Below, in pieces: positions 7,484 to 36,105 of a stretch of DNA of 64,000 nucleotides. Below the pieces are notes generated by a model. It saw nothing but the letters and a program-made list of their open reading frames with translations. It ran no database searches and had not been told where the DNA came from. How positions within the stretch are numbered: the stretch's first letter is position 1; the number at the start of each line of letters is the position of its first letter. The stretch comes from an uncultured Rhodospirillaceae bacterium (GTDB taxonomy: Bacteria; Pseudomonadota; Alphaproteobacteria; UBA11136). The stretch lies in NCBI GenBank assembly GCA_964482135.1, contig CAYZWF010000006.1:4438-68437 (forward strand), given 5' to 3'. The translations under genes were made by a program, and so were the position numbers.

Positions 7484-8005
7484 ATGGTGATCTGGATTAC
7501 CGGACTTTCAGGCGCCGGCAAGACAACGCTGGCTACGGCGCTCTACGAGGCCATGAAGCCTGCCCTGCCCACCCTGGTGCGGATTGATGGTGACGAGGTG
7601 CGGGCGCTTTTCGGCAACTCCCTGGGCTTTGCCGAATCCGACCGCCGCCTTCAGATTCAACGTCTGCAGAGTCTCGCCACTATACTGGACGGCCAGGGTC
7701 TCACCGTGATCGTGGCGGCTCTTTACGCCCATCCCGAATTGCTGGCCTGGAACCGGGATCATTTTTCCGATTATTTCGAGGTCTATCTCGAGGCCTCGCT
7801 GGAGCTGGTGCGCAGCCGCGATCCCAAGGGACTGTACGCCAAGGCGGATTCCGGCGATATGCCTGATGTGGTGGGGGTGGACGTGCCGTGGCACGTGCCG
7901 GACAATCCCCACATGACGGTGACGGCGGGGGACGATCTCGATACGGGCGTGGTGGCGCGCGATATCATGGACCGCCTATCTTCTCTGAGCGGGACCGGGA
8001 AATAA
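7484..8005 (+). CDS. cysC: Adenylyl-sulfate (APS) kinase
   Basis: 173 aa. P-loop 'ITGLSGAGKTTLA'. Length is typical of stand-alone CysC. Confidence 0.85.
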   Translation: MVIWITGLSGAGKTTLATALYEAMKPALPTLVRIDGDEVRALFGNSLGFAESDRRLQIQRLQSLATILDGQGLTVIVAALYAHPELLAWNRDHFSDYFEVYLEASLELVRSRDPKGLYAKADSGDMPDVVGVDVPWHVPDNPHMTVTAGDDLDTGVVARDIMDRLSSLSGTGK

Positions 8006-8015
8006 ACGGGCAGCC

Positions 8016-9098
8016 ATGAGCGAACTCGTCCTCACCCGCCCCCAGTATCTGGAGCTTGAAAAGCTCGGCCTGGGCGCCTTTCGCCCGCTCACCGGCTTCA
8101 TGAACGAAGATGAGTTCCAGGGCTCCGTGGAAACCATGCGGCTTCCCGGTGGCGCGGTCTTCCCCCTGCCCGTGGTGCTGGACGTGGATGGAGAGACGGC
8201 CACACGGCTGGAGGGCCTGCCCCGGGTGGCGCTGGTTTATGACGGCGAACAGGTGGGCGAATTGCGTCCCGAAAGCGTCTTTACCTGCGACAAGGCGGCG
8301 GTGGCCGAAAAGGTCTATGGCACCACCGATCCCGCTCATCCCGGCGTGGCGTTTTTCATGGCCGGTGGCGACCATTTCATGGGCGGTGCGGTGGCGCTGA
8401 CCAAACGCGCCACCTTCGATTTTTCCAGCGATGAACTGGCGCCCGAAGAAACCCGCGCCCTGTTTGCCGAGAAGGGGTGGCAAACCGTTGTCGGATTCCA
8501 GACCCGCAATGTGCCCCACCGCGCTCACGAATATCTGCAACGCATCGCTCTGGAACAGGTGGATGGTCTCTTCATCCAGCCCCTGGTGGGGCGTAAGAAA
8601 AAAGGCGACTACACGCCACAGGCGATCCTGCGCGGCTATCGCACCCTGATCGGGGAGTTCTATCCCGCCGACAAGGTGGCGCTGGGCATTCTCTCCACTT
8701 ATATGCGTTATGCCGGGCCGCGCGAGGCCGTATTTCATGCCCTCGTCAGGCGCAATTACGGCTGTACCCATTTCATCATCGGCCGCGATCATGCCGGGGT
8801 CGGAGATTATTACGGCACCTACGAGGCCCACGAGATGACGCGGCGCTTCGACGGCGATCTCGGGATCGAGATCATGTATCTGCACGGCCCTTATTTCTGC
8901 GGCCGTTGCGATGGCATCGTCACCGAACAGACCTGTCCCCATGAAAAAGACCTGCCCGATTCCGTTACCCATATCAGCGGCACCGACATGCGGGCTATGC
9001 TGCTTGGCGGCAAGGAGCCGGATGCCCATCTCATGCGGCCGGAGGTGATCGCCGCGCTTCAGGGAACCGAGCTGTTTATCGAGGATGACGAAACATGA
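8016..9098 (+). CDS. sat: Sulfate adenylyltransferase (ATP sulfurylase, homo-oligomeric Sat type)
   Basis: 360 aa. Has 'QTRNVPHRAHEYL' and 'IIGRDHAGVGDYYG' motifs. Its stop overlaps the next start (ATGA). Confidence 0.85.
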   Translation: MSELVLTRPQYLELEKLGLGAFRPLTGFMNEDEFQGSVETMRLPGGAVFPLPVVLDVDGETATRLEGLPRVALVYDGEQVGELRPESVFTCDKAAVAEKVYGTTDPAHPGVAFFMAGGDHFMGGAVALTKRATFDFSSDELAPEETRALFAEKGWQTVVGFQTRNVPHRAHEYLQRIALEQVDGLFIQPLVGRKKKGDYTPQAILRGYRTLIGEFYPADKVALGILSTYMRYAGPREAVFHALVRRNYGCTHFIIGRDHAGVGDYYGTYEAHEMTRRFDGDLGIEIMYLHGPYFCGRCDGIVTEQTCPHEKDLPDSVTHISGTDMRAMLLGGKEPDAHLMRPEVIAALQGTELFIEDDET

Positions 9099-10534
9099 GC
9101 GCCACCCGCATCGTCTGTACCATCGGCCCGGTTACCAATAATGAACCGGCGCTACGCGATCTGGCAGCGGCGGGAATGAACGTGGCCCGGCTCAATGGCT
9201 CCCACGGCGATCTTGACTGGCATGCCGCCGCTATCGCCCTGCTGCGCGAGGTGGCGCCCGAGATTCCGATTCTTCTCGATATTCCCGGACGCAAGATTCG
9301 CACCACCGACTTGGCTCACGAGCCCGAATTCGCGCGCGGCGATACGGTAATACTGACCACCGAAGAAGGTCATGACGGTTCCGAAAAAGTGCCCGTCAAC
9401 CGGGCCTCTTTGCATGAAGAGGTGAGCGCGGGCGACGTGATCCTGGCCGATGACGGCACCTTGAAATTCAACGTGGAAAAGGTCACGGGACAAGACATCC
9501 ATCTCCAGGCCGAAGGGCCGGGAAAGCTCAAGAGCCGCAAGGGAATCAACGTTCCCTCGCTCTCCCTGGCGGGTGAGGGGGTGACACAGCGTGACCGTGA
9601 CATGATGGCCTTTGCCCGCGAACACGGCGTTGATTACATCGGTATCAGCTTCGTTGATTCCGCCGAACATGTGAACGCGGTGCGCGAACTGTGCGGCGGT
9701 AACTGGCCGCGTATCGTCTCTAAGGTGGAAAACCAGGGCGGGCTGGATAATCTCGAACAGATCGTGGAGGCCACCGATGCGGTAATGATCGACCGCGGTG
9801 ATTTGTCGGTGGAAACCAATCTCGAAAACCTGGCTTTGTTCCAGAAACACATCCTCGATGTATCCCGCGCCCACGGCAAGCCGGTGATTGTGGCCACGGA
9901 AATGCTCCATACCATGATCGAGAATTCCTTCCCCACCAAGGCCGAGGTTAGCGACATCACCAATGCCGTTCTCGATGGCTGTTCCGCCGCCATGTTGTCG
10001 GGGGAGACGGCGGTGGGCGCCCACGCCACGGAATCGGTGGCGGTCATGCGGCGGGTCGCCGATGCCGCCGAAGCCGATCTTCAGGCGCGGCTCGACGACG
10101 GGCGCGAAGCGGCACGCCGCGGCGACCGGCCCACCAGCGTGCCTCAGGCCATGGAAGATGCGGTGGCCTTGATCTGCCGTTCACTGCCCATCACCAAGAT
10201 CGTCGCCGTGACTATCTCCGGCTATGCCGCCCGCATGACGGCGGCGCGGCGTCCCAGCCAGCCCATCATCGGCGTCAGCAACGACGCCATGGCGGCGCGC
10301 AGCTTCAACCTTTTCTGGGGCGCCCAGGGTGTGCATGTGGACATTCCCTTTTCCAAGACCTCCACCGATCATGTGGTGAAATGCCTTGAGGAACTGTGGC
10401 GGCGCGGCATTCTCGACGACCATGACCTGATTTTGGTGACGGCCTTGGGCTATCCCCGCTCAGGCAACCGCATGAATCTTCTCCAGACCCATGCGGTCTG
10501 TGACCTTGTGGAATCCCTGAGCTGGAAAAAATAA
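9095..10534 (+). CDS. Pyruvate kinase family protein (divergent paralogue)
   Basis: 479 aa. Has 'VCTIGP', 'MNVARLNGSHG', 'SKVENQGG' and 'MIDRGDLS'. Canonical motifs are altered: 'ATEMLHTM' for ATQMLESM, 'SGETAVG' for SGETAKG. It is translationally coupled to sat. Confidence 0.75.
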   Translation: MSATRIVCTIGPVTNNEPALRDLAAAGMNVARLNGSHGDLDWHAAAIALLREVAPEIPILLDIPGRKIRTTDLAHEPEFARGDTVILTTEEGHDGSEKVPVNRASLHEEVSAGDVILADDGTLKFNVEKVTGQDIHLQAEGPGKLKSRKGINVPSLSLAGEGVTQRDRDMMAFAREHGVDYIGISFVDSAEHVNAVRELCGGNWPRIVSKVENQGGLDNLEQIVEATDAVMIDRGDLSVETNLENLALFQKHILDVSRAHGKPVIVATEMLHTMIENSFPTKAEVSDITNAVLDGCSAAMLSGETAVGAHATESVAVMRRVADAAEADLQARLDDGREAARRGDRPTSVPQAMEDAVALICRSLPITKIVAVTISGYAARMTAARRPSQPIIGVSNDAMAARSFNLFWGAQGVHVDIPFSKTSTDHVVKCLEELWRRGILDDHDLILVTALGYPRSGNRMNLLQTHAVCDLVESLSWKK

Positions 10535-13422: not shown

Positions 13423-13633
13423 GGAGCCAGACTACACGAAGCGTCGCCCCCATACACGTCCCGGGACGAAACGGGGATGGCAAAACGGGGCGGGTTGAAA
13501 ACATTTCCAGACAGCCCCATGTTTAGTGAGCTTCGTCACAGACAATGACAATGGTTGTTGTGGTAATGAAGGCTCTCTGCCTTCGGGCTGAGTTCCCTGG
13601 GCACTTCGCCTGAAAGCCCCGGCAAGAGTAATT

Positions 13634-14032
13634 TTGGAGGAAACCATGACGGATTTTTCCAGTTTGAAAGTTCTGGTGGCGGATGACGACCAGCTTTTTC
13701 TCGATTTTGTTAAAATGGTCCTGAACGATTTGACAATCCGGGATGTGGTTTCCGTGGGTGACGGCGCCGATGCGGTCCGTAAAATTATCGAAACCGAGCA
13801 GGATTTTGATCTTGTGGTCTGCGACTATGAGATGCCCGGTTTCAGCGGCATGGATGTCTTTCGTCTTATCCGCAAGGCGAATATTCCGACAAAATTCGTG
13901 ATGATTACCGCCCGTGACCGTAGCGAGGACGCGGAAACCATCTCCGGCGGCGGCTGTGAAAACTTTATTGCCAAGCCCGTTGAGCCTAAGACGCTTCGTG
14001 ACACGCTGGAGGCTATCCTTCAGGAGAGCTGA
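13634..14032 (+). CDS. Single-domain response regulator (CheY-like receiver)
   Basis: 132 aa. 'VLVADDD', the phospho-Asp context 'LVVCDYEMPGFSG', and conserved T/K ('MITA...KP'). Confidence 0.8.
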   Translation: MEETMTDFSSLKVLVADDDQLFLDFVKMVLNDLTIRDVVSVGDGADAVRKIIETEQDFDLVVCDYEMPGFSGMDVFRLIRKANIPTKFVMITARDRSEDAETISGGGCENFIAKPVEPKTLRDTLEAILQES

Positions 14033-14112
14033 AAAGATTCGTTGCGGGGGGCAAAGAATAAAAACACGGCCTGCCATAGGGCGGACCTGTGGTGTGTTTT
14101 CTTGAGGTTCTC

Positions 14113-14672
14113 TTACGAAGCCCCGTCCAATACCTCGCGCACCCTGAAGGCCAGCTCATCTTTCCGGTAGGGCTTGAGAATCATGGGAAACGTTACGTCC
14201 CCCTTCATTTTTTCCCTTATTTCATCGGGATTATAGCCGGTGCATAAAAGCACCCCTATATCCGGGTCGAGCTTCCGGGCTTTTTTGGCAAGTTCCACCC
14301 CGGACATGCCGCCTGGCATGACTACGTCGGTGAGCAAGAGGTGAATTTTTTTCCCGCCCTGCTGACCTTGACCTCCACGGGAAACACGGTGCCGTCCTTG
14401 CGCTGGTGGGTGCTCTCGAAGCGTTTGGACCGGACCCGGCGCAGCTCTTCCCAGTGCAGGGGCCATCCCTTGTGAGAGGCATTGGGATCAATGTCGGGGA
14501 TGGACATGCCGACGAGCTCTTCCCTGGCATAGCCAAGGTCTTCGCAAGCGGCATTGTTGGCATAAAAAATCCGTGCATCCCGGGTCATGCCGTAATAGGC
14601 GTCCCGGGTATGATCAAGCGAGAACTGAGACAGCTCCAGGGCCTTGTCAGCCTTTTTGAAGTATCTGAACAC
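14113..14672 (-). pseudogene. Decayed sensor gene: a PAS domain joined to the C-terminal two-thirds of a receiver domain across a frameshift. No kinase core is present.
   Basis: ORF 14322..14672 is a PAS domain ('GMTRDARIFYANNAACEDLGY...DGTVFPVEVKVSRAGKK'). ORF 14113..14466 carries only the 'IHLLLTDVVMPGGMSGVEL...' half of a REC domain. The two frames meet at a T7/A7 homopolymer at about 14346-14352. Confidence 0.6.
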
Positions 14673-14941
14673 GGCGAGATCTTCCCCCGTGCGGTATTGT
14701 GCATAAATTCACTGTGCTTTGGTAGAAAAAGCTCACCCGGGCCGGTACGCCGCGGCAGGCGGGACATAACGCGCCGTTTCAATATGGAGAGATGCAAAAA
14801 CTGGGGGTTTACGGGTGTTGTGCGGGGAAGCCAGGCAGCTCTCGTTAACGGTAAATTTCAGGGCGTGGATGGAAATATCCGATACGTCGAACAGCTTCGA
14901 AAGGGCATATTTCTTTAGTAAGAATAAAGCGGAGACAAAGC

Positions 14942-16144
14942 ATGTCCGATAAAGAATTATTACAAAATAAAACGGAAAAAGAGGTTCTTAGAGTCTACCA
15001 AAAAGTAAACCCCTCCACATACCCGATCGAAGAAGACCCCAAGGAATACCGGCGCAGAATGGATTTCATGGAGGACCTGTTTCTCCATCGCCTTAATTTT
15101 CCACCTAAAATGTTCAAGGATGCGACCCTTCTCGACTTCGGAACAGGGACCGGAGAGAACTCGCTGTTTTATCTGGTGGCAGGGGCTTCGTGTACCTTTG
15201 TGGAAATGAACCAGCTGGCCTGCCAGAGAGCCGAAAAATTATTTAAACAATTTTCTTCAGAGTCATCAAAATGGGAAATCGTCAACGAGTCCCTTTTCGA
15301 TTTTAACAGCGACGAATCATACGACATCGTTATTTCTAACGGTGTTATTCACACCACATCGGACAAGGAAAAGGCGATTGAAATAAAGTCCAAGCACTTG
15401 AAAAACGGGGGTTTCCTCGTTCTTGGCATCGCCAATTCCGCGGGCTCATTCCAACGCAACCTGCAACGGGCCATTCTCTATCATTTCGCCACAAGTGACG
15501 AAGATATTGCCTCTCTTGCCGAGGAACTGTTCGCCGACCATTTGGATCGTGCCGAAAAATTCAGTAGCCGGGACAGGAAGGCGATCATATACGATTCTTA
15601 CGTAAATCCTAAACTCGATACTCCGAGCGTATCGGAAATTTTGAATTGGTTTTCAAAGAACGGCCTGGTCATGTATTCGTCATGGCCGCCCATCATCCCG
15701 GCGATTCTTGGTGATCCGGCGGACAGAAAACCGTTGCCGCTCGAAGACTTTCCCAGCCTGATGAGCCTTGCGGAAATTATCTATTTAAGTCATTCCGACG
15801 ATGATGCGATCGTCTTGGCCGAAACCGAAAAAGGAATGGAGCCGGCCATTAAATCGTTTAAGGAGATTGTCGATTTGCTGAGTGATGTGACACCCAATGG
15901 GCGCATCGAAGTTGATGATGCCATTAAAAAAATCGATACATTCCAGGCGGGAGAAAAAAGATTAGATCCGTATCTTCCTCATATGGACAGGCTGACGAAC
16001 GCTCTGGAAGAAACCAAATGTATTATTGAGGCCCTCAAAAAAGATGACATCAATGGTGTCAAAAAATGCATCGAAGATACAAAAGTGCTTTTTAAGGGAA
16101 CACATGGATTGGGAATGAGCTGGTATATCGGGTATAAGCGCTAA
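14942..16144 (+). CDS. SAM-dependent methyltransferase with an uncharacterised ~200-aa C-terminal domain (copy 1)
   Basis: 400 aa. 'LLDFGTGTGENSLF' motif I and 'YDIVISNGVIHT' motif II in the N-terminal half. Only about 42% GC. Confidence 0.75.
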   Translation: MSDKELLQNKTEKEVLRVYQKVNPSTYPIEEDPKEYRRRMDFMEDLFLHRLNFPPKMFKDATLLDFGTGTGENSLFYLVAGASCTFVEMNQLACQRAEKLFKQFSSESSKWEIVNESLFDFNSDESYDIVISNGVIHTTSDKEKAIEIKSKHLKNGGFLVLGIANSAGSFQRNLQRAILYHFATSDEDIASLAEELFADHLDRAEKFSSRDRKAIIYDSYVNPKLDTPSVSEILNWFSKNGLVMYSSWPPIIPAILGDPADRKPLPLEDFPSLMSLAEIIYLSHSDDDAIVLAETEKGMEPAIKSFKEIVDLLSDVTPNGRIEVDDAIKKIDTFQAGEKRLDPYLPHMDRLTNALEETKCIIEALKKDDINGVKKCIEDTKVLFKGTHGLGMSWYIGYKR

Positions 16145-16168
16145 ATAAAAATAAGACGGAGACAAAGC

Positions 16169-17371
16169 ATGTCCGATAAAGAATTATTACAAAATAAAAC
16201 GGAAAAAGAGGTTCTTAGAGTCTACCAAAAAGTAAACCCCTCCACATACCCGATCGAAGAAGACCCCAAGGAATACCGGCGCAGAATGGATTTCATGGAG
16301 GACCTGTTTCTCCATCGCCTTAATTTTCCACCTAAAATGTTCAAGGATGCGACCCTTCTCGACTTCGGAACAGGGACCGGAGAGAACTCGCTGTTTTATC
16401 TGGTGGCAGGGGCTTCGTGTACCTTTGTGGAAATGAACCAGCTGGCCTGCCAGAGAGCCGAAAAATTATTTAAACAATTTTCTTCAGAGTCATCAAAATG
16501 GGAAATCGTCAACGAGTCCCTTTTCGATTTTAACAGCGACGAATCATACGACATCGTTATTTCTAACGGTGTTATTCACACCACATCGGACAAGGAAAAG
16601 GCGATTGAAATAAAGTCCAAGCACTTGAAAAACGGGGGTTTCCTCGTTCTTGGCATCGCCAATTCCGCGGGCTCATTCCAACGCAACCTGCAACGGGCCA
16701 TTCTCTATCATTTCGCCACAAGTGACGAAGATATTGCCTCTCTTGCCGAGGAACTGTTCGCCGACCATTTGGATCGTGCCGAAAAATTCAGTAGCCGGGA
16801 CAGGAAGGCGATCATATACGATTCTTACGTAAATCCTAAACTCGATACTCCGAGCGTATCGGAAATTTTGAATTGGTTTTCAAAGAACGGCCTGGTCATG
16901 TATTCGTCATGGCCGCCCATCATCCCGGCGATTCTTGGTGATCCGGCGGACAGAAAACCGTTGCCGCTCGAAGACTTTCCCAGCCTGATGAGCCTTGCGG
17001 AAATTATCTATTTAAGTCATTCCGACGATGATGCGATCGTCTTGGCCGAAACCGAAAAAGGAATGGAGCCGGCCATTAAATCGTTTAAGGAGATTGTCGA
17101 TTTGCTGAGTGATGTGACACCCAATGGGCGCATCGAAGTTGATGATGCCATTAAAAAAATCGATACATTCCAGGCGGGAGAAAAAAGATTAGATCCGTAT
17201 CTTCCTCATATGGACAGGCTGACGAACGCTCTGGAAGAAACCAAATGTATTATTGAGGCCCTCAAAAAAGATGACATCAATGGTGTCAAAAAATGCATCG
17301 AAGATACAAAAGTGCTTTTTAAGGGCACGCACGGATTGGGAATGAATTGGTATATCGGGTATAAAGCTTGA
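16169..17371 (+). CDS. SAM-dependent methyltransferase with an uncharacterised C-terminal domain (copy 2)
   Basis: 400 aa. Identical to copy 1 except for the last residues (…GMSWYIGYKR versus …GMNWYIGYKA). Confidence 0.75.
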   Translation: MSDKELLQNKTEKEVLRVYQKVNPSTYPIEEDPKEYRRRMDFMEDLFLHRLNFPPKMFKDATLLDFGTGTGENSLFYLVAGASCTFVEMNQLACQRAEKLFKQFSSESSKWEIVNESLFDFNSDESYDIVISNGVIHTTSDKEKAIEIKSKHLKNGGFLVLGIANSAGSFQRNLQRAILYHFATSDEDIASLAEELFADHLDRAEKFSSRDRKAIIYDSYVNPKLDTPSVSEILNWFSKNGLVMYSSWPPIIPAILGDPADRKPLPLEDFPSLMSLAEIIYLSHSDDDAIVLAETEKGMEPAIKSFKEIVDLLSDVTPNGRIEVDDAIKKIDTFQAGEKRLDPYLPHMDRLTNALEETKCIIEALKKDDINGVKKCIEDTKVLFKGTHGLGMNWYIGYKA

Positions 17372-17570
17372 CTGCGTACCAAGAATCTCTAAACCAGGAA
17401 TTCCCGCGCTTGGACAAAATAGGGCGCTGGTCGTTTTCTTCTTTTCTTTCTGTCCATATCACTGTCCATATCAAATAAAAATGTTTGGCGCTTGCCCCCG
17501 GGACTGGATCAAACTGGACGCCAATCAGAATCGGCTAAATTGATTTTATTCTCAGGAGATTTTACCAGGC

Positions 17571-17864
17571 ATGTCAGCTAAATCCGCCCTTGAGATCGTC
17601 CAGACCGCAATTTCTGAAGTAAACGAACAGAACGACGACGGCCAGGCCATCGACGCCGCGCCGGAAACGGTGCTTCTCGGACCCGGCGGCGTCGCCGATT
17701 CATTAATTCTGGTAAATATCGTAGTGGCGGTCGAACAGAACCTGGAGGCCCAGACCGGCACCTACGTGACGCTTATCGAAGACGACACCGTTCTGGGTGA
17801 TGATGGCCCCTTGCGGACGGTTGGAAGTCTCGTCGAATTTGTCGCTGGGAAAATGGGCGGATGA
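17571..17864 (+). CDS. Acyl carrier protein-like (phosphopantetheine attachment 'DSL')
   Basis: 97 aa, acidic. 'GGVADSLILVNIVVAVEQ' matches the ACP helix-2 serine motif. Confidence 0.6.
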   Translation: MSAKSALEIVQTAISEVNEQNDDGQAIDAAPETVLLGPGGVADSLILVNIVVAVEQNLEAQTGTYVTLIEDDTVLGDDGPLRTVGSLVEFVAGKMGG

Positions 17865-17865
17865 T

Positions 17866-18561
17866 GTGTCGCGCACGGTTCTTATAACGGGCGCCAGCCG
17901 GGGAGTCGGCCTCAGGCTGGCCGCCGAAATGGCCGCTCGCGGTGATGTGGTTTTTGGCTGCGGCCGGTCGAAAGCGCCTGCGGATATTTCCTTTCATTAT
18001 ACAGAGGCTGACGTCGGGGATGAAAAATCCGTGAAGGCGCTTTTTAGTGCATTGCGCAAGGAAGCGGACGGATTGGATGTTCTTATAAACAATGCCGGCC
18101 TCGCGGACGCTAAATCGCTTTTGCTCAGCCGAGCCGAAGATTTTTCCAGTATCTTCGCCGCCAATGTAACCGGCGCCGCCATCGTGTCGCGCGAAGCGGC
18201 TAAAATGATGAAGCGGCGCGGCGGGGCTATCATCAATGTTTCCTCCATCCATGTGCCCTTGGCGTCGGTGGGCAGCGGCGCTTACGGGGCTTCCAAGGCG
18301 GCGCTGGAACAGCTTTCCCGCGTCATGGCCCATGAACTGGCAAGCGATTCCATTTCGGTTAACAGCCTCGGACTTTCCTACGTCGAAGGGACCGGTATGG
18401 CGGAGGCACAGAGCGAAAAAGCAGTCGAGGCGGCCTCGGCCCGGCTCGCCCGGCCCGGTCAAATCACCGTCGACGAGGTTCTTCATGCGGTTGATTTCCT
18501 TTCTTCCCCGGCGGCTCGGAATATCACCGGTGAAACCCTTTATTTCGGCGGGCCCCTCTAG
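17866..18561 (+). CDS. Short-chain dehydrogenase/reductase (ketoreductase candidate)
   Basis: 'VLITGASRGVGL' Rossmann motif and 'YGASKAAL' catalytic Y-x3-K. A GTG start at 17866 was chosen just after the ACP stop; the track's ATG at 17797 overlaps the ACP. Confidence 0.7.
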   Translation: MSRTVLITGASRGVGLRLAAEMAARGDVVFGCGRSKAPADISFHYTEADVGDEKSVKALFSALRKEADGLDVLINNAGLADAKSLLLSRAEDFSSIFAANVTGAAIVSREAAKMMKRRGGAIINVSSIHVPLASVGSGAYGASKAALEQLSRVMAHELASDSISVNSLGLSYVEGTGMAEAQSEKAVEAASARLARPGQITVDEVLHAVDFLSSPAARNITGETLYFGGPL

Positions 18562-18577
18562 GTTCCGGTCAGGCACC

Positions 18578-19219
18578 GTGCAGAACAAGGTAAAGCAGAT
18601 CGTCAACGGCCCCTGGCAGCAGAATTGCTACCTGATCGGGGGTAAGGACGACGCCGCGCTTATTCTCGATCCGGGTAGCGACGCGCTATTGATTGAAAAA
18701 AGCATTGAGGATGCCGGCTTCAAACCCATCGCTATCATCAACACCCATGCCCATTACGATCATATTGGCGCGGTGGCGGCGCTGATGAAGCGCTATGCCA
18801 TTCCCTTTTATATGCACAGCAGCGACGCGGATATTCTGAAGCAGGCCAACGTCTATCGGCGGATTTTCGGCTGTTCGATTAAGGTCGAGGTGCCGGAGAT
18901 CACCCATGACCTCGCCACTCTTCCCGCGGAAATCGATATCGGACCCTTCCGGGTATCCTGGCTGGCGACACCGGGCCATACCCCGGGCAGCGTCACCTTT
19001 ACCATCGATGGCGATCTTTTTCCCGGCGACACGCTTTTTTGTGATTCCATCGGCCGCACCGACCTTCCGGGCGGTGACAGGGCGGTGCTCGCTCTGTCGT
19101 TGCGCCGAGTTACGGAACTGCCGCCGCATCTCATGTTGCGACCGGGTCACGGCCCGGCGGCGGTGCTTGGTGACATTATCGCATCCAACAAAACTCTGGC
19201 CGAGGCCATCGCCGCATGA
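18578..19219 (+). CDS. MBL-fold metallo-hydrolase (glyoxalase II/thioesterase-like)
   Basis: 'IINTHAHYDHIG' HxHxDH motif and 'TPGHTPGS'. GTG start at 18578; the long track ORF from 18236 overlaps the SDR gene. Confidence 0.7.
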   Translation: MQNKVKQIVNGPWQQNCYLIGGKDDAALILDPGSDALLIEKSIEDAGFKPIAIINTHAHYDHIGAVAALMKRYAIPFYMHSSDADILKQANVYRRIFGCSIKVEVPEITHDLATLPAEIDIGPFRVSWLATPGHTPGSVTFTIDGDLFPGDTLFCDSIGRTDLPGGDRAVLALSLRRVTELPPHLMLRPGHGPAAVLGDIIASNKTLAEAIAA

Positions 19220-20259
19220 CAGGTCGGGCTGTCGGTATTCTGGCCGTGGCGTCTCATCTGCCGGACAGGCGGGTGAGCAACGAAGAGCTTCAAAACGAAC
19301 ACCCGGACTGGGACATGGCGCAGCTGGCAGAGCGCACCGGTGTTTATGAACGCCCCATCGCGGCGGAAGGCAAAACTGCTTTCGACCTCGGCCTCGCCGC
19401 CTGCCGTAAGTTGATCGAAGCTGGCGATTTCGATCCAGCGGCCATCGGCGCGGTCATTTTCTGCACCCAGACCCCCGATTACATCATGCCGCCCAATGCC
19501 TGCTTGCTCCACGGGGCGCTGGACCTGTCACCGGACGTCCTCGCTTTCGATATCACGTTGGCCTGTTCGGGGTATGTCTACGGCCTGACGCTGGCCGAAA
19601 GCTTGATTGCCGCCGGCCGCGTCGAGAGCGTCCTCCTGGTCACCGCGGATACCTACAGCCACCTCATTCACTCCCAGGACCGGACAACACGGTGTCTTTT
19701 TGGCGACGGCGCGGCGGCGTCGCTCATCGGGCTGGTGGAAGACGGCGAAGGGATCGTTGACATCCGATGTGGCACGGCGGGGGCCTTGGGCGACCGTTTT
19801 ATGGTGCCGGCCGGTGGCGCAAGGTTGAAGAAAGGCCCCGCAACAGCCGAGCCGGAAGCCGACCGGTTCGGCAATGTCCGCACCGCCGAACACATCCACA
19901 TGAATGGCTTTGGCGTCCTCGCCTTTGCCAATGAATATATGCCGGGCACGGTCCGCGACATTCTCGACGCCAACGGACTCGGCGTCGATGATCTGGATAT
20001 GGTCATCTTCCATCAGGCGAGCCGCGTGGCGCTGGACAGCCTTTGCCGCCTGACCGGGGTCAGTTCGGATCGGGATTTCAGAAACCTGGACAATGTCGGC
20101 AATCTGGTTTCCGCCTCCATCCCCGTCGCCCTGGCCGACGCGGTATCCCAGGGTCGCCTCGCGCCGGGATCATTGATCTTGCTCTGCAGTTTTGGTGCTG
20201 GCTTGTCTTGGGGCAATGCGCTGATTCGCATCCCCGCCGCCTTGACCGTAAAAACGTGA
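19216..20259 (+). CDS. 3-oxoacyl-ACP synthase III (FabH-like KAS III)
   Basis: 347 aa. Active-site Cys context 'DITLACSGYVYGL'. C-terminal 'FHQAS' and 'GAGLSWG' motifs. Confidence 0.8.
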   Translation: MTGRAVGILAVASHLPDRRVSNEELQNEHPDWDMAQLAERTGVYERPIAAEGKTAFDLGLAACRKLIEAGDFDPAAIGAVIFCTQTPDYIMPPNACLLHGALDLSPDVLAFDITLACSGYVYGLTLAESLIAAGRVESVLLVTADTYSHLIHSQDRTTRCLFGDGAAASLIGLVEDGEGIVDIRCGTAGALGDRFMVPAGGARLKKGPATAEPEADRFGNVRTAEHIHMNGFGVLAFANEYMPGTVRDILDANGLGVDDLDMVIFHQASRVALDSLCRLTGVSSDRDFRNLDNVGNLVSASIPVALADAVSQGRLAPGSLILLCSFGAGLSWGNALIRIPAALTVKT

Positions 20260-21632
20260 GTAAGAAGGCTGTGAGTGAAATCACCTTCCTCTGTGATGCA
20301 CTTGCCAGCCGCCCCGGCGAGCCCGCCCTGATCTGGCGGGAGTCCGTCGTCACCACTGGCGACATTCTGGAATTGATAGAGGAGGCGGAAAGTCGGCTGG
20401 AAGCGGAAAGCATCAACCCCGGCGATGTGGTGCTGCTGGTGGCCGACTACTCCCCCCGGGCGGCGGCGTATCTTCTGGCCCTGATCAAGCGCCGCGCTAT
20501 TACCGTGCCCTTGACGCCGGGTGTTCTCGCTCGCTCGTCCAGGTATCTTGAAATCGCCGAACCCACCCGAGCAGTCCGTATTTCGGAAGACGACGCCGTC
20601 ACCGTGGAGATTCTTGCGTCCAGCGGTAAGGAAAACAATCTTTACGGTTGCTTGCGCTCCGATGACCGTCCCGGGCTGGTGCTCTTTACCTCCGGCTCGA
20701 CAGGTGAGCCCAAGGGTGTGGTCCACGATTTTTCCCGGCTTCTGGAAAAATTCAAACGGCCCCGCCCGACCATGAGCATGGTTGCTTTTCTGATGTTCGA
20801 TCATTGGGGTGGCCTCAACACTCTACTGCACGGATTTTCAAGCGGCAGCCTGATGGCCTTTCCCGGCGATCGCCAGCCTCATCACGTCTGCGGCCTGATC
20901 GAAAGGCACCGGTTGGAACTTCTCCCCGCCTCGCCGACCTTCCTCAACCTTCTGATTATGAGCGGCGCCCACCGGGAATCCGACCTTTCCAGCCTCAAAC
21001 TCATTACCTACGGCGCGGAACCAATGCCGCCGGCGACATTGGAAGCGGTGCGCCGCGAGTTACCCGAGGTGGAAATGCGCCAGACCTACGGCCTGATTGA
21101 GCTCGGCGTCATGCGGTCGAAATCAAAGTCCAGTGATTCGCTCTGGGTGAAGATCGGCGGTGACGGATACGAGACTCGGATCAAAGGCGGTCTTTTGGAG
21201 ATCAAGGCCGACGCCGCCATGCTTGGCTACCTCAACGCCCCCAGCCCCTTTACCGATGATGGCTGGTTCATGACCGGTGACGCCGTGGAAACCAAGGACG
21301 GCTTTTATCGCATCCTCGGGCGCGCCAGCGAACTCATCAATGTCGGCGGCCAGAAGGTTTACCCGGCGGAGGTGGAAACGGTCCTGCTTGAATGTGCGGC
21401 GGTGAAAGATGCGGTGGTCTACGGCGAACGCAATCCCATCACCGGTAAAATCGTCTGCGCCGATGTGGTGCCCGTCACGCCCGGCGACACGGCGGAACTA
21501 CGCCGGACCATCAAACGCCATTGCCAGGAAAACATGGAAAGTTTCAAGGTGCCGGTCCGTATCAACATTAAGGAAGGTGTCGTCTACGGCGACCGGTTGA
21601 AGCGCAAAAGGCCGGTGGAAAGCAAAACCTAG
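20256..21632 (+). CDS. AMP-dependent synthetase/ligase (acyl-ACP or acyl/aminoacyl-carrier ligase)
   Basis: 'LFTSGSTGEPKGV' AMP-binding motif, 'YGLIE' and 'GWFMTGD'. GTG start at 20256 just after the KAS III stop; the track ORF from 20043 overlaps KAS III. Confidence 0.75.
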   Translation: MSKKAVSEITFLCDALASRPGEPALIWRESVVTTGDILELIEEAESRLEAESINPGDVVLLVADYSPRAAAYLLALIKRRAITVPLTPGVLARSSRYLEIAEPTRAVRISEDDAVTVEILASSGKENNLYGCLRSDDRPGLVLFTSGSTGEPKGVVHDFSRLLEKFKRPRPTMSMVAFLMFDHWGGLNTLLHGFSSGSLMAFPGDRQPHHVCGLIERHRLELLPASPTFLNLLIMSGAHRESDLSSLKLITYGAEPMPPATLEAVRRELPEVEMRQTYGLIELGVMRSKSKSSDSLWVKIGGDGYETRIKGGLLEIKADAAMLGYLNAPSPFTDDGWFMTGDAVETKDGFYRILGRASELINVGGQKVYPAEVETVLLECAAVKDAVVYGERNPITGKIVCADVVPVTPGDTAELRRTIKRHCQENMESFKVPVRINIKEGVVYGDRLKRKRPVESKT

Positions 21633-21662
21633 CCCGCAACTTTAATATGTTGCGGGCTTTTT
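21632..21662. terminator. Bidirectional intrinsic terminator between the convergent ligase and carbamoyltransferase genes
   Basis: The hairpin 'gcccgcaac-tttaatat-gttgcgggc' is followed by 'ttttt'. Confidence 0.6.
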
Positions 21663-21677
21663 GCCGCCTGACCGGTC

Positions 21678-23381
21678 CTATCTCAGCGATACGCGTTGCG
21701 ATTCCACATACAACGCATCAATTGTTCCGGTTAATAAAATTTTTAATGCGTCGTCTACGGCACAGATTATCGGTTCCTCATGAGTATTGAAGGATGTGTT
21801 GATCAACGCATATTCGCCGGTTTTTTCGAACCATTGACTGACCACAGCCCACATGAAGGGATCGTTGTCTTTTCTAATGACATGGGGACGCGCAGTGCCA
21901 TCAACATGAGTTACCGCGGAACACTTGCTGGAGAATTCATCCGTACAATTTACGGTAGATGTCATGAAATTAAATGTTATGTCGGATTCCAGAAACCCTA
22001 TGAAGGCCTTTTTGGCCAGTTCAGTGGTGGTAACGGGAGCAAAAGGCATGAACTCCGTTCTGTGCAATCGCTCGTTAAGCAATTTGTTGCAGGATTGGTC
22101 TGACGTTTTATAAAGAATTGATCTATTGCACAGCGCCCGGGGGCCGAATTCCATCCTTCCTCGAACGAGTCCGACAACCTTGCCAGAGATCAGGTCTTCA
22201 ACCAATTCGCCAACGGTGTTTTCAGGCTGTTCAACCGTTATTTTTTGTAGGACGTCATCTGGCTGTTTGTTGATCTCATCCACGTCTATGGACGGCCCGA
22301 GATATACATGGGTCATGGGAGAGATTTTCAATCCCGCCGAATGTTGAGCATAAGCGGCAGCGCCAAGACAAAGGCCACCGTCACCCATTTGTGGCTGTAT
22401 AAACATCTGTTTTATGTGTGGCAGTTCTTTCAGGGTTTGATTGGCTTTAACATTGCCGAAAATACCGCCCGCGCATACTAGTGGAATGTCCTTGAGCTCA
22501 TATTTTTCACAGACGTGAACGACGATTTTACAGAGCAAATCTTCCAGGTGTTGTTGGGCCGCCGCGGCAATATCCTCTCTTGAATAGCGCGAGATCTCTT
22601 TTTGTAGGGCATCACTGTAGTTCGTATAAAAAGGCCGATATAAGTCACCAAGTTTGGCTTTCAGTTCTCCATCTTCGAAATCGATCATCCCCTGCATGAG
22701 TCCGATGGCATTCTTGGGGTCTCCATGAGCCGCCAGTCCCGTTATTTTTCCCTCATGCCGGCAGGGTTTGAACCCCAGCAGGCCAGTAATGCGCCCATAA
22801 AAAAAGCCCAGACTGTCCGAAGATGTGGAAGCGTATATTTTACGCATAACCGGCTCAGAGGCCGTGTCATAAAGCCAACACGTTAATGACTCGTAATCAC
22901 CCCTTGCATCCGCCGTTAAGACGAGAGCCCTCTGATAAGGGCTCAACAAACAGGCGCTGTAGGCATGTGCCTCATGATGGAAACATGTAATGAGGGGGGG
23001 GTGTCCCTGGGCGGGAAAATGTTCATCGAACCAACCCTTAAATTCATTTTTATTGGCTTCGTCTCTTTCTGTTTCGATGCGTATTCTTTCTGAAAAAATA
23101 TCAAGTGCAGTTTTATCTTCTTCAGCCAACTCAACAGCACGCGCTGCGTAAATCGGAAGCAGCTCTTCCTGGAAGTCTTTCCCCCAGGCATATGCCACCT
23201 GATCGATATCTGTAAGATTTACTCCAGCCTCTCTGAGCACGTATTCAATCGAACGAATGGGAAAGGATTCGTCCATTTTTATTCTAGAAAATCGTTCTTC
23301 GCTCGCAGCGGCTATCAACTCACCATCTTTGAAGCAGCAGGCAGAGGCGGTTTCTGCATTACAGATACCTAATGTTATCAC
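21678..23381 (-). CDS. NodU/CmcH-family carbamoyltransferase
   Basis: N-terminus 'ILGICNAETASACCFKDGELIAAASEERFSRIK' (carbamoyltransferase N domain). C-terminal transferase domain 'VNTSFNTHEEPI'. About 45% GC. The start was moved to the GTG at 23381 (or the TTG at 23396), because the track's start at 23468 overlaps the tRNA. Confidence 0.75.
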   Translation of the reverse strand: MITLGICNAETASACCFKDGELIAAASEERFSRIKMDESFPIRSIEYVLREAGVNLTDIDQVAYAWGKDFQEELLPIYAARAVELAEEDKTALDIFSERIRIETERDEANKNEFKGWFDEHFPAQGHPPLITCFHHEAHAYSACLLSPYQRALVLTADARGDYESLTCWLYDTASEPVMRKIYASTSSDSLGFFYGRITGLLGFKPCRHEGKITGLAAHGDPKNAIGLMQGMIDFEDGELKAKLGDLYRPFYTNYSDALQKEISRYSREDIAAAAQQHLEDLLCKIVVHVCEKYELKDIPLVCAGGIFGNVKANQTLKELPHIKQMFIQPQMGDGGLCLGAAAYAQHSAGLKISPMTHVYLGPSIDVDEINKQPDDVLQKITVEQPENTVGELVEDLISGKVVGLVRGRMEFGPRALCNRSILYKTSDQSCNKLLNERLHRTEFMPFAPVTTTELAKKAFIGFLESDITFNFMTSTVNCTDEFSSKCSAVTHVDGTARPHVIRKDNDPFMWAVVSQWFEKTGEYALINTSFNTHEEPIICAVDDALKILLTGTIDALYVESQRVSLR

Positions 23382-23421
23382 CTGAAAAACCCTCAATCGT
23401 TGATTGTCGATATTTGATAAA

Positions 23422-23511
23422 TGGCGGTGGGGGTGGGATTCGAACCCACGGTACCCGCAAGGGCACAACGGTTTTCGAGACCGCCCCGTTCAACCACTCC
23501 GGCACCCCACC
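23422..23511 (-). tRNA. tRNA-Ser (anticodon CGA)
   Basis: The reverse complement gives GGTGGGG…GGTCTCGAAAACC…GTGGGTTCGAATCCCACCCCCACCGCCA. It has a 7-bp acceptor stem, a long variable arm, a T-loop GGTTCGAATCC and 3' CCA. Length 90 nt. Confidence 0.85.
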
Positions 23512-23607
23512 GACGGTTTTTCCGCTTGCGTAGCGGGGTAATTATACCCCGGTTGCGGCGGCGACCCTAGCCCAAGGCGCACCCCCTCGCAAGACCCCCA
23601 AAAAGCG

Positions 23608-23712: not shown

Positions 23713-24282
23713 ATGTTTGCAGTCATCCGCACCGGCGGAAAACAGTACAGGGTTGCCAAAGACGACATCATCTCCGTGGAGAAACTCGACGGTGGTGAAG
23801 GTGCGTCCGTGACCCTTGATCAGGTGCTCATGATTGGCAGCGGTAAAAACGCCACCATAGGCGCCCCCCTGGTGGCTGGCGCCTCGGTCACGGCAACCGT
23901 GCTTGAACAGGCCCGCGCCGACAAGATCGTCGTCTTCAAGAAGAAACGCCGCAAGGATTACCGCCGCAAGGCCGGCCACCGCCAGAACCTGACGGTTCTG
24001 CGCATCAACGATATCCTCGCCACCGGCGCCAAGGCCGCGCCCAAGAAGGCAGCAGCCGAGAAACCTGCTGCCAAGAAGGCGGATACCAAGAAAACGCCTG
24101 AAAAGAAGACCCCGGCCAAAAAGATAGAAGCTAAAAAGACTGAGGCCAAGAAAGCCGAAGCCAAGAAACCTGCGGCCAAAAAGGAAGAGTCTAAAAAACC
24201 CGCGGCCAAGGCGAAGCCCGCCACGAAAAAGACGCCCGCGAAGAAACCCACGGCCAAGAAAACTCCCAAGAAGGAGAAATAG
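23713..24282 (+). CDS. rplU: 50S ribosomal protein L21 with a Lys/Ala/Pro-rich C-terminal extension
   Basis: '[14 protein letters not shown]' L21 core of about 105 aa. It is followed by an ~85-aa KKxAAKK-type repeat tail. Confidence 0.9.
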
Positions 24283-29752: not shown

Positions 29753-30550
29753 ATGAAGCCGGAAATGTTTAGCATACATGCCGATGTGGAAGCCCGGCAC
29801 TGGTGGTTCGAGGCGCGCCGCCGCATCCTGTTTCCCCTCATTCGCCAGGTCATGGCGGGGCAGGAGGGCGAGATCATCGTCGATGTGGGTTGCGGCACGG
29901 GAGGGACCGTCGCCGCCCTCTGTAGAGAATACGATTGTGTGGGTATCGACGATTCGAAGCTGGCCATCGAAACCGCCGAGGCCGCCTATCCCCAGGCCAC
30001 CCATCCCCGGGGCGGCTTTCGCCTTGGCCGTATGCCCGATGACCTTCGCGACCTGGCTCCCCGCACGGGGCTCTATCTGCTCATGGATGTTCTCGAGCAT
30101 GTGGAGGACGACCGCGCCTTTCTTGCCGATCTCATCGCCCTGGCCCGGCCCGGCGCGCATATTCTGATTACGGTTCCCGCCGGCCCGCAGCTGTGGAGCC
30201 GCCACGACATTACCGCCGGGCATCTGCGCCGCTATGAACACGATACCCTTACATCCCTGTGGCGGAACCAAGGCGTTTCGCCGCGTCTGGTGACCTTCTT
30301 CAACAGCCGTCTCTATCCCTTGATCCGGCTGGCTCGATACGCGGGCAACCGCTTTGGGGCCTCCTGCGGACGCGAGGGCAGCGATTTCCATGTGCCGCCA
30401 CCGCCCGTTAATGCGCTTTTGGAGGGCATATTCGCCGGCGAAGGAGGCCGCATCCTCTCCCGCCTCGACCAGCCGGAAACGGCGGCCTATGAACACGGGG
30501 TCAGCCTGTTGGCGCTGATCCGATGTGCGGAATTGAACCGCTCCCCGTGA
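29753..30550 (+). CDS. Class I SAM-dependent methyltransferase
   Basis: 'IVDVGCGTGG' motif I. 265 aa. First gene of the sugar-tailoring cluster. Confidence 0.8.
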   Translation: MKPEMFSIHADVEARHWWFEARRRILFPLIRQVMAGQEGEIIVDVGCGTGGTVAALCREYDCVGIDDSKLAIETAEAAYPQATHPRGGFRLGRMPDDLRDLAPRTGLYLLMDVLEHVEDDRAFLADLIALARPGAHILITVPAGPQLWSRHDITAGHLRRYEHDTLTSLWRNQGVSPRLVTFFNSRLYPLIRLARYAGNRFGASCGREGSDFHVPPPPVNALLEGIFAGEGGRILSRLDQPETAAYEHGVSLLALIRCAELNRSP

Positions 30551-30617
30551 AATGCCATAAAAGACTTCTTGTTTCCCGCCCTCCGTTTCAGAAATTTTTC
30601 CCCATGGATATGAAGAT

Positions 30618-32302: not shown

Positions 32303-32305
32303 AAT

Positions 32306-33364: not shown

Positions 33365-33396
33365 GGGTCACAGAGGCCTGCGGGACGGAGGCAGGG

Positions 33397-34344: not shown

Positions 34345-34530
34345 AGGTCAGGGCTATGGCGTTGATATGCCCCGCCGTTTTCCCTAAAGTAGCGGCGCCG
34401 GATCAGGGCTCGATTTAAAGTTTTTTGTGTGGTTTTCAGGCGTTTCCGGACCAATATTCAGATATATTACGGAAGAAACTCAGATCGGGGGCTGTGTCGG
34501 GACCGCCTCCGGAATTTACGAGTAGGGTGC

Positions 34531-35988: not shown

Positions 35989-36105
35989 ACGCCTCCCTCT
36001 CCCGGTCTCCCCCATTGGGGCGACGGTGTGGTCCTTGCCCCCCCGCCTGTGATCAGGTACTAATTCTGGCGCACCAGCACCGCCTGAATCAAAGGGCTTT
36101 ACGCC

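Follow-up and report, generated by a model that had tools for sequence, protein, structure and literature searches.

Background

Surface nonulosonic acids (NulOs) and amino sugars bear many N-acyl groups, which shape antigenicity and recognition by phages and by the immune system, and the genes behind these groups are mostly unknown; a 2017 study of Tannerella described knowledge of NulO-modifying enzymes as ‘scarce’ and their elucidation as ‘a major challenge’ (PMC5378307). In Pseudomonas, genetic and mass spectrometric evidence ties vioS, vioR, acp, vioB and vioM to the N-(3-hydroxybutanoyl)-2-O-methyl-viosamine carried by flagellin, and the viosamine island of P. syringae (vioA, vioM, vioT, vioS, vioB, vioR and acp) has homologous genes, OrfB, OrfC, OrfD and OrfG, in the P. 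aeruginosa PAK island (PMC3927599). In the group II flagellin islands of Aeromonas, orf1 to orf3 code for an acyl carrier protein (ACP), a reductase and an AMP-synthetase, in that three-gene order and beside pse genes (PMC7874193), a set that is likened here to the present one by description only. The subject of this work is a cassette of five genes, coding for an ACP, a short-chain dehydrogenase/reductase (SDR), a metallo-beta-lactamase (MBL)-fold hydrolase, a type III beta-ketoacyl-ACP synthase (KAS III) and an adenylate-forming (ANL) ligase, in a 64,000-nt stretch of contig CAYZWF010000006.1 from an uncultured Rhodospirillaceae bacterium. This whole stretch is called the window, and coordinates count from its first letter.

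The explanation that we favour, and which on balance is probably right, is that the region at 14.9–23.4 kb forms the tailoring end of a pseudaminic acid (Pse) surface-glycan locus of an uncultured marine alphaproteobacterium, in which the cassette would build a short beta-hydroxyacyl group on its private carrier protein for the N-acylation of an amino sugar, and that the region is no mobile island. Gene calls were made from the list of open reading frames (ORFs) together with Pfam and NCBIfam profile searches. A preliminary description of this DNA had named two methyltransferases, the ACP, SDR, MBL-fold, KAS III and ligase proteins and a carbamoyltransferase, and the profiles bear out all these identities. 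It had also supposed that no such combined module was known, which is not supported, since the five-gene cassette is widespread and related sets from flagellin islands have been published (PMC3927599, PMC7874193).

Enzymes of the cassette

The five genes lie on one strand, tightly spaced, between 17571 and 21632. The MBL-fold and KAS III genes overlap by 4 nt (19216–19219), as do the KAS III and ligase genes (20256–20259), and an intrinsic terminator on the plus strand (21631–21662) follows the ligase stop codon. From the overlaps and this terminator, the genes from ACP to ligase look like one translationally coupled operon. The terminator itself, already reported in the preliminary description, is real and consists of a 10-bp hairpin with seven G-C pairs (21631–21658) and then TTTT; it could also serve the convergent carbamoyltransferase gene described below. 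Catalytic residues are intact in all four of the cassette enzymes, and the carrier serine is present.

The carrier protein (17571–17864, plus strand, 97 amino acids) has a DSL motif with Ser44, which is invariant across 35 homologues. It has no match in Pfam, and in the PDB its family profile matches nothing but ACP and D-alanyl carrier proteins. The family is a large one, with at least 1,376 clusters at 50% identity (E<=0.001, from a single-sequence search of 1.84 billion representatives); the 150 best homologues listed are mostly about 95–105 amino acids long, and the position of the gene at the head of the cassette is conserved.

The FabG-like SDR ketoreductase (17866–18561, plus strand; adh_short, 1.2e-40), for which TTG at 17839 is an alternative start, resembles 3-oxoacyl-ACP reductase models yet falls below their cut-offs, and its Y140 and K144 are kept in at least 95% of 69 homologues. 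The MBL-fold hydrolase (18578–19219, plus strand, 213 amino acids; Lactamase_B, 3e-27) is of the short glyoxalase-II type, its best NCBIfam model being hydroxyacylglutathione hydrolase. Its PDB matches (7ev5, 2zwr, 7l0b and YcbL, 2xf4) are short thioester hydrolases of that same type, and the metal site, H57xH59xD61H62 with H134, D151 and H191, is kept in at least 95% of 31 homologues. The protein is treated as a putative thioesterase. The FabH-like KAS III (19216–20259, plus strand) has both the ACP_syn_III and ACP_syn_III_C domains and scores 264.7 bits against a cut-off of 249 for model NF006829. Its Cys-His-Asn triad, which the preliminary description had singled out for inspection, is intact, at least 95% of 40 homologues sharing C117, H266 and N296. 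Of the PDB entries, 3gwa from Burkholderia pseudomallei matches best (3e-69), its alignment running through the segment at residues ~210–230 of the window protein.

The ANL ligase (20256–21632, plus strand, 458 amino acids; AMP-binding and AMP-binding_C), which serves as marker of the cassette, keeps K153, E255, D342, R356, K367 and K449 in at least 95% of sequences, these being the P-loop Lys, the A5 Glu, the A7 Asp, the A8 Arg and Lys, and the C-terminal catalytic Lys. It is far from any solved structure, the best PDB sequence match having an E-value of 1e-26. An AlphaFold2 (AF2) model (pLDDT 84) has the ANL fold and is alike in its similarity (TM 0.73–0.78) to CoA ligases, to carrier-loading A domains and to the amide synthetase McbA. 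More distant relatives of the ligase on plasmids (39–46% identity) are always found beside a small carrier protein, twice with a type I polyketide synthase (PKS). That ligase and carrier remain paired in settings as distant as the PKS ones speaks for carrier loading as the role of the ligase family.

The two plasmid loci with a PKS (L088 and L089, from Burkholderia and Bradyrhizobium; here and below, numbers with L denote loci) contain, in this order, a small carrier, the ligase, an SDR, an ACP, a type I PKS and an alpha/beta hydrolase, with a phosphopantetheinyl transferase in L089. The arrangement has the appearance of a polyketide starter module made up of ligase and SDR. The plasmid relatives of the ligase were considered as members of the cassette family and set aside, their settings being PKS or orphan ligase–ACP ones only.

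Distribution and genomic setting of the cassette

The cassette is a common one. The best 120 ligase homologues, out of a number too large to be scored in full, are full length at 52–95% identity and at least 519 bits, and there are well over a hundred 90%-identity clusters of ligases at 52% identity or above. In all seven of the ligase-homologue neighbourhoods inspected, the gene order is ACP-(SDR)-MBL-KAS III-ligase, five of them having the SDR (L003, L005, L007, L091 and L093) and two lacking it (L092 and L094). A further 80 loci (L098–L177) came from a ligase profile scan of JGI metagenomes, with neighbours screened by tblastn, and 34 of these are informative in that they have at least 3.3 kb upstream of the ligase. 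The five-gene form is seen in 11 of the 34 and a three-gene form, ACP-SDR-ligase, in 15; the remainder are rearrangements, such as the permuted order NeuB-KAS III-ligase-NAT-ACP-SDR-MBL in L130, in which NAT is an N-acyltransferase.

These two architectures track the phylogeny of the ligase, a ligase and its nearest neighbour agreeing in architecture in 43 of 47 cases. The ligase of the window has a mean identity of 53% to ligases of the five-gene type and of 46% to those of the three-gene type, and its sequence places it in the five-gene-type clade. The carrier, reductase and ligase are therefore the core of the system, and the MBL-fold protein and KAS III an accessory pair.

The surroundings of the cassette are those of glycan biosynthesis. 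All nine annotated homologue neighbourhoods sit among genes for sugar nucleotides, NulOs, glycosyltransferases or acyltransferases; sugar-gene markers occur in many of the 80 metagenome loci, and in five-gene loci they occur wherever any neighbour was detected. Among the neighbours are NeuB, CMP-NulO synthetase, class III and DegT aminotransferases, AsnB, PIG-L, glycosyltransferases, Wzm/Wzt and polysaccharide deacetylases. Glycan tailoring, with which the preliminary description had linked the genes, is thus a reading for which these comparative settings give good support.

Pseudaminic acid genes and a candidate N-acyltransferase

At the left end of the window, the NeuB homologue at 1363–2481 (plus strand; Pfam NeuB and SAF) is a PseI pseudaminic acid synthase, with 505.5 bits against a cut-off of 340 for TIGR03586, as compared with 299 bits, under the cut-off of 400, for the NeuB/NnaB model. 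It is followed by a pseudaminic-acid-biosynthesis-associated methylase (2478–3107, plus strand; TIGR03587, 154 bits against a cut-off of 112). The nonulosonic acid genes that had been suggested as a source of substrate are thereby confirmed, and specified as belonging to Pse. After the methylase come a GT4 glycosyltransferase, two AsnB-type amidotransferases, a PMT_2/ArnT-like membrane transferase, an adenosine phosphosulfate (APS) kinase, an ATP sulfurylase and a pyruvate kinase.

Divergent from pseI and adjoining it is the gene of an N-acyltransferase of the AAC(3) fold (340–1137, minus strand; Antibiotic_NAT, PF02522, 1.4e-27), whose closest relatives in the PDB are FrbF and AAC(3) enzymes (about 1e-8). 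Homologues of this protein (42–46% identity, nearly full length, E 3e-66 to 3e-80) are encoded directly beside the ACP gene in three metagenome loci (L100, L106 and L142), and more distant homologues come just after the ligase in six (L130, L131, L135, L145, L171 and L120). More generally, three families of N-acyltransferase adjoin the cassette elsewhere and are interchangeable: hexapeptide-repeat enzymes (L091, L093, L104, L117 and others), GNAT enzymes (L005, L094, L116 and L125) and the AAC(3)-like proteins. With homologues directly beside cassettes elsewhere, the protein at 340–1137 is the foremost candidate for the enzyme that passes the acyl group on to a sugar amine, and its position beside pseI would make a Pse precursor the acceptor.

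The APS kinase, ATP sulfurylase and pyruvate kinase genes form a tight run (7484–10534) within the glycan locus, which suggests a supply of 3'-phosphoadenosine-5'-phosphosulfate for a sulfated glycan and of phosphoenolpyruvate for PseI; no sulfotransferase was recognised.

A proposed pathway

Under the favoured explanation, KAS III would condense a short acyl primer with a malonyl unit to give a beta-ketoacyl thioester, and the putative thioesterase would free the beta-keto acid, as PqsE does after PqsD in the synthesis of alkylquinolones (see below), or would edit or release the product. The ligase would then charge the private carrier with the freed acid, the SDR would reduce the 3-keto group, and a separate N-acyltransferase, for which 340–1137 is the candidate here, would deliver the acyl group to the sugar amine. 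The most plausible acceptor is the 4-amino group of a Pse precursor, later N7 of Pse. To the same glycan, the O-carbamoyltransferase and the duplicated methyltransferase described below would add carbamoyl and methyl groups. The acyl group is probably short and 3-hydroxylated, of the C4 or 3-hydroxybutanoyl type, the model being the group that the vioS, vioR and acp set of Pseudomonas makes (PMC3927599), and the presence of a ligase indicates that the primer or substrate is perhaps not plain acetyl-CoA. The identities of the genes, their intact active sites, the conserved synteny, the glycan setting, the base composition and the occurrence in a sister lineage are observed, whereas it is by inference that we name the acyl group, the sequence of the steps, the acceptor and the type of glycoconjugate (lipopolysaccharide (LPS), capsule or glycoprotein).

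The placing of the thioesterase before the ligase is favoured because it accounts for the joint presence or absence of the MBL-fold and KAS III proteins against a constant set of carrier, reductase and ligase. This pattern suggests an order of steps different from the ligase-first scheme of the preliminary description, in which the ligase primes the carrier, KAS III extends, the SDR reduces and the hydrolase releases; that scheme is plausible and agrees with the sequences equally well, as does one in which the ligase itself makes the amide. The whole two-stage pathway, in which KAS III and the MBL-fold enzyme make a free acid, the ligase recaptures it, the SDR reduces it and the AAC(3)-fold enzyme, in place of the more usual GNAT or hexapeptide type, transfers it, to give a hydroxyacylated, carbamoylated and methylated Pse, is, taken in every part, a speculative proposal that we think unlikely to be right in full. 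If it were true, the three-gene form would be the same pathway fed by a pre-existing acid, and the product would be a type of Pse for which no description was found.

Several points weigh against the favoured explanation. A CoA thioester, an ACP thioester and an amide are indistinguishable as products of the ligase by sequence and fold. An acetyl-CoA primer would make the ligase needless, and for this reason the acyl group may not be 3-hydroxybutanoyl. Moreover, Acinetobacter baumannii makes Pse5Ac7(3-hydroxybutanoyl) by way of psaG and psaH and without a cassette of this kind (PMC9676051). Within the window itself, there is no acyltransferase within 5 kb of the cassette, the candidate at 340–1137 lying 16 kb away; pseB, pseC, pseF, pseG and pseH are absent from the 64 kb, such that the Pse pathway is only partly visible; and there is no flagellin, Maf, Wzx/Wzy or WaaL gene to name the glycoconjugate. 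Finally, no biochemical study of any member of the cassette was found in the searchable literature, a coverage that leaves out subscription journals.

Alternative explanations

The alternative that survives best has the ligase acting last. Here KAS III, the SDR and the ACP would make the hydroxyacyl group, the MBL-fold enzyme would free the acid, and the ANL enzyme would adenylate it and form the amide directly on the sugar amine, in the manner of McbA or NovL, with no need of an acyltransferase. The proposal fits the lack of an acyltransferase beside the window cassette, the failure to detect one within 5 kb in 17 of the 26 loci with enough flank, and the place of McbA among the structural neighbours of the ligase (TM about 0.74). 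Against this, an adjacent N-acyltransferase is seen in about a third of loci, by a tblastn panel of limited sensitivity, and the pairing of ligase with carrier is kept both in the three-gene form, which has neither KAS III nor MBL-fold protein, and in PKS contexts, which fits carrier loading better. Direct amide formation is accordingly regarded as unlikely, though it is the rival to be taken most seriously.

It is less likely again that the product of the cassette is a small diffusible or lipid compound, such as a signal in the form of a beta-keto or hydroxy acid, or the starter of a polyketide, with its glycan location incidental. The gene set does match PqsA, PqsD and PqsE (PMC5112799), and plasmid-borne relatives of the ligase (40–46% identity) stand with type I PKS genes. 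However, the seven annotated neighbourhoods of close homologues (at least 52% identity) are all in sugar loci, the five-gene metagenome loci show sugar markers wherever a neighbour was detected, N-acyltransferases recur beside the cassette, and the window has no PKS, exporter or regulator of the kind that such a product would call for.

A system of the Dlt or Alm type, in which the ligase would load an amino acid on the carrier for lipid A, a teichoic-acid-like polymer or another component of the envelope, is improbable. A stand-alone adenylating enzyme paired with a small carrier does recall such systems, as do the weak contact of the carrier profile with D-alanyl carrier proteins (E about 0.25) and the carrier-loading A domains Thr1 and CytC1 among the structural neighbours of the ligase. 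Yet no transferase of the DltB/MBOAT, DltD or AlmG type was found in the window, DltA is outside the 60 best PDB sequence matches of the ligase, and the constant SDR and frequent KAS III partners point to keto-acid rather than amino-acid chemistry.

Lastly, that the ACP, KAS III and SDR are housekeeping enzymes of fatty-acid synthesis conserved at this locus in all relatives, the scenario that the preliminary description had named as its own undoing, is effectively ruled out, for although the KAS III passes the cut-off of a generic NCBIfam KAS III subfamily, none of 80 alphaproteobacterial rplU-obg loci carries the cassette genes, fabD, fabF, fabZ and fabI are missing, the carrier is too divergent for Pfam PP-binding, and the KAS III subfamily shares the 3gwa-type extra segment at ~210–230.

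Flanking genes and the origin of the locus

The cassette is flanked by two further sets of genes that the favoured explanation takes to be glycan tailoring functions. To its right, convergent with it, lies the gene of an O-carbamoyltransferase of the TobZ/NovN/GdmN/NodU family (21678–23381, minus strand, 567 amino acids; Carbam_trans_N 6e-35, Carbam_trans_C 8e-49). Its start is GTG at 23381, giving 567 amino acids as in a 95% homologue (P0121), and not that of a shorter 532-amino-acid call. The best PDB match is 7xb6 (2e-60), followed by NovN, GdmN and TobZ, down to 3e-46, with residues 11–562 aligned. The protein contains the motif HHEAH, the metal site of the O-carbamoyltransferase family. 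Its nearest non-self homologue (60%) adjoins insertion sequence genes.

To the left of the cassette is a tandem duplication (14919–17372, plus strand) with a period of 1227 bp, which was absent from the preliminary description and contains the same methyltransferase gene twice (14942–16144 and 16169–17371, both plus strand). Each copy codes for a class I S-adenosylmethionine-dependent methyltransferase of 400 amino acids, in which Pfam matches (Methyltransf_12/23/11/25) cover residues 49–175 only; two of the last residues of copy 2 differ from those of copy 1. By repeat scan and alignment, the units are identical save for the last ~40 nt, where several substitutions cluster, a pattern more in keeping with gene conversion, or with unequal crossover of alleles, than with a duplication that has only just arisen. 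A sister contig (L178) has a single methyltransferase copy, and two contigs from two JGI metagenomes (L001 and L002; 99.96–99.98% nucleotide identity to the window, with an identical KAS III protein) break within the duplication.

The 400-amino-acid methyltransferase family is rare, with 114 matches at E<=1e-5 in 5.8 billion sequences. In both of the two homologous loci inspected, it is part of a NulO locus that also codes for NeuB, a CMP-NulO synthetase and a carbamoyltransferase, the latter belonging to a different subfamily with 28–30% identity to that of the window. An AF2 model of the protein (pLDDT 93) matches PDB folds over the generic class I core only, and its C-terminal helical domain (residues ~250–400), which is family-specific and confidently modelled, has no PDB match in a fold search. 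The best whole-chain likeness is to the cores of two protein lysine methyltransferases, Rickettsia PKMT and Mycobacterium tuberculosis Rv2067c (TM about 0.4). In view of this core-level likeness, the substrate of the methyltransferase may be a protein.

The base composition of these genes sets them apart. Against a baseline of the 27 genes to the right of the tRNA described below (61.9 +/- 3.4% GC; third-position GC (GC3) 74.4 +/- 4.4%), the methyltransferase genes have 45.3% GC and 52.4% GC3 (z about -5) and the carbamoyltransferase gene has 46.9% GC (z -4.5) and 47.7% GC3 (z -6), while the ACP-to-ligase genes are at 56.8–62.2% GC (z -1.5 to +0.1). The mosaic composition that the preliminary description reported is real, in that there are two low-GC segments around a near-native cassette, although the genome is nearer to 62% GC than to the 65% then given. 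The compositional anomaly is confined to the methyltransferase and carbamoyltransferase segments; in other words, two low-GC imports flank a cassette of near-native composition. From their sequences and settings, the 400-amino-acid methyltransferase and the carbamoyltransferase are best read as NulO or glycan tailoring enzymes from lower-GC donors.

Beyond the carbamoyltransferase lies a tRNA-Ser(CGA) gene (23422–23511, minus strand; ARAGORN and Rfam), 40 bp away when the start at 23381 is used. An Rfam scan of 12–25 kb found this tRNA only, a sub-threshold plastid match being its antisense. To the right of the tRNA the genes are rplU-rpmA-obg-proB-proA-nadD-rsfS-rlmH. This segment was compared with that of relatives, defined as the 80 best Obg matches in GTDB at one genome per species, which are Alphaproteobacteria where a class is given and have Obg identities of 59–71%. 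By its sequences, the host is a divergent alphaproteobacterium; no close relative is found by Obg in GTDB, the best being at about 70% identity, and presence or absence of the cassette at close range is read from L178 alone. The tRNA-Ser(CGA) gene is divergent from rplU in 35 of the 80 loci, which makes it an ancestral neighbour of rplU-rpmA-obg and not a landmark of insertion. Synteny with the 80 relatives is limited to 23.6–29.7 kb, and the whole of 1–23.4 kb, left of the tRNA, is unshared throughout.

The sister contig L178 (~94.7% nucleotide identity) has the order L21-carbamoyltransferase-ligase-KAS III-MBL-SDR-ACP-methyltransferase-receiver-ABC-AsnB, as in the window. Its layout is the same apart from the single methyltransferase copy and a missing stretch upstream of it (see below); the arrangement is older than the split of the two lineages and is still being remodelled. 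The comparison of neighbourhoods at tRNA-Ser that had been proposed therefore has two sides, the cassette being absent from the 80 distant relatives and present in L178, the only close relative found.

Features expected of a mobile island were also sought. The 3' end of the tRNA has no second copy in the window, even at two to three mismatches, such that there is no att-type repeat; a repeat scan of 13.4–24 kb returns only the methyltransferase duplication; and no integrase or transposase domain is present among ORFs of at least 90 amino acids in 13.4–23.5 kb, in agreement with the preliminary description, which had seen no integrase. Its idea of a tRNA-flanked island, in the sense of a mobile element, is nonetheless not supported, there being no integrase and no repeat of the tRNA end, an ancestral link between tRNA and rplU, and asynteny over all of 1–23.4 kb rather than over an island. 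The locus is no mobile island but a variable glycan region, the end of which coincides with a tRNA. Of the integrase family, the window has a single gene, a Phage_integrase gene of XerC/D type at 55062–56045; it lies about 0.8 kb from priA, beyond which is the ATP synthase operon, and codes for a housekeeping recombinase unrelated to the cassette.

Upstream of the methyltransferase pair are signalling genes. A CheY-like single-domain response regulator (13646–14032, plus strand; Response_reg positions 1–110 of 111, 1.3e-22), which the preliminary description had not listed, is intact, has about 51% GC and is preceded by a GGAGG ribosome-binding site before its ATG. A 184-amino-acid ORF on the opposite strand (13523–14077), at first a candidate for a low-GC gene, is spurious, the plus-strand receiver being the true gene. 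The decayed sensor gene that had been described is real and is the remnant of a hybrid sensor kinase (14113–14672, minus strand), in which a PAS piece (PAS_9, 2.4e-11, in ORF 14322–14672) abuts, in another frame, the C-terminal half of a receiver (Response_reg profile positions 41–110, in ORF 14113–14466). The remnant is an internal deletion of the kinase core. L178 lacks window positions 14166–14911 and has about 54 nt of unrelated sequence there instead.

Two features to the right of the tRNA may be recorded. The L21 protein (23713–24282) has a Lys/Ala-rich C-terminal extension of about 90 amino acids with a weak histone-H1-like HC2 match, and this extension accounts for a spike in AT skew at 24.0–24.5 kb. 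To the right of rlmH, a second sugar-modification cluster (29753–39191) contains genes for a methyltransferase, a C-methyltransferase (Methyltransf_13/14), an NDP-sugar epimerase/dehydratase, a GFO/IDH/MocA oxidoreductase, a B12-binding radical SAM enzyme (52% GC), a GT2 glycosyltransferase and a DUF6044/YfhO-like membrane protein. Similar sets of GFO, C-methyltransferase and epimerase genes flank the cassette in L092 and L094.

Significance

The cassette is very common in environmental genomes, and the value of these observations is in the cassette family rather than in the window locus, which is an ordinary member of the family and also a clear example of the patchwork assembly of tailoring genes. 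Assignment of the product would allow glycan chemistry to be read from the genomes of many organisms. In this regard, the AAC(3) fold is known mainly from aminoglycoside resistance and from FrbF, and as a recurrent partner of the cassette it would be extended into sugar biosynthesis; judging from their genomic positions, the AAC(3)-like proteins beside cassettes may be acyl-ACP-dependent sugar N-acyltransferases. No description was found, within the searchable literature, of the five-gene form with its MBL-fold protein and ligase, of the AAC(3)-like partner, or of the pairing of the cassette with a carbamoyltransferase and this family of methyltransferase.

Comparison with known systems

Among systems that make or carry related groups, the parallels with Nod-factor decoration drawn in the preliminary description fail for NodU, NodE and NodS alike. 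The carbamoyltransferase scores 89 bits against a cut-off of 1000 for the NodU equivalog, NF041651. NodE is a ketosynthase of the KAS I/II type; the enzyme of the window is a KAS III, with no match to the ketoacyl-synt domain. The methyltransferase has no match to the NodS family, NodS standing 41st among its structural matches and aligning over the methyltransferase core only. What the carbamoyltransferase does share with TobZ, NovN, GdmN, NodU and CmcH is the two-domain architecture of a Kae1-like Carbam_trans_N and a Carbam_trans_C, at only moderate identity. No carbamoyltransferase is mentioned in the top-ranked literature on nonulosonic acids or flagellin. The sfmABCDE genes of Shewanella were considered as the same cassette and rejected, the published set being a PseI-like protein, a reductase, a methyltransferase and an ATP-grasp enzyme.

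In A. baumannii, psaABCGHF yields the type of product that is proposed here, with psaG and psaH in place of psaD and psaE and with no dedicated ACP, KAS III, MBL-fold enzyme or ligase (PMC9676051). The logic of the individual steps is closer to that of the alkylquinolone pathway of P. aeruginosa, in which PqsA is an ANL ligase, PqsD performs a beta-ketoacyl condensation of the KAS III type and PqsE is an MBL thioesterase that frees the beta-keto acid (PMC5112799). The Pqs system uses CoA thioesters, makes an aromatic product and has no carrier or reductase, such that the analogy is one of logic only; PqsD is a weak match to the window KAS III (8e-36), and PqsE is not among the PDB matches of the MBL-fold protein.

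The flagellin islands are nearer in their gene content. Those of Aeromonas differ in having LuxE and LuxC and in being without the KAS III/MBL pair (PMC7874193). The viosamine and PAK islands, compared here by description only, resemble the present locus in that a private ACP occurs together with a KAS III, a 3-oxoacyl-ACP reductase and a methyltransferase in a variable glycan region. They have no ANL ligase or MBL-fold enzyme, their sugar is dTDP-viosamine and not a nonulosonic acid, their acyltransferase, VioB, is encoded in the island and flagellar genes are linked, whereas the ORFs scanned over all 64 kb of the window include no VioB-type hexapeptide acyltransferase, no DegT aminotransferase and no flagellar gene. 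Acyl modules built on a private ACP are already known from glycan loci.

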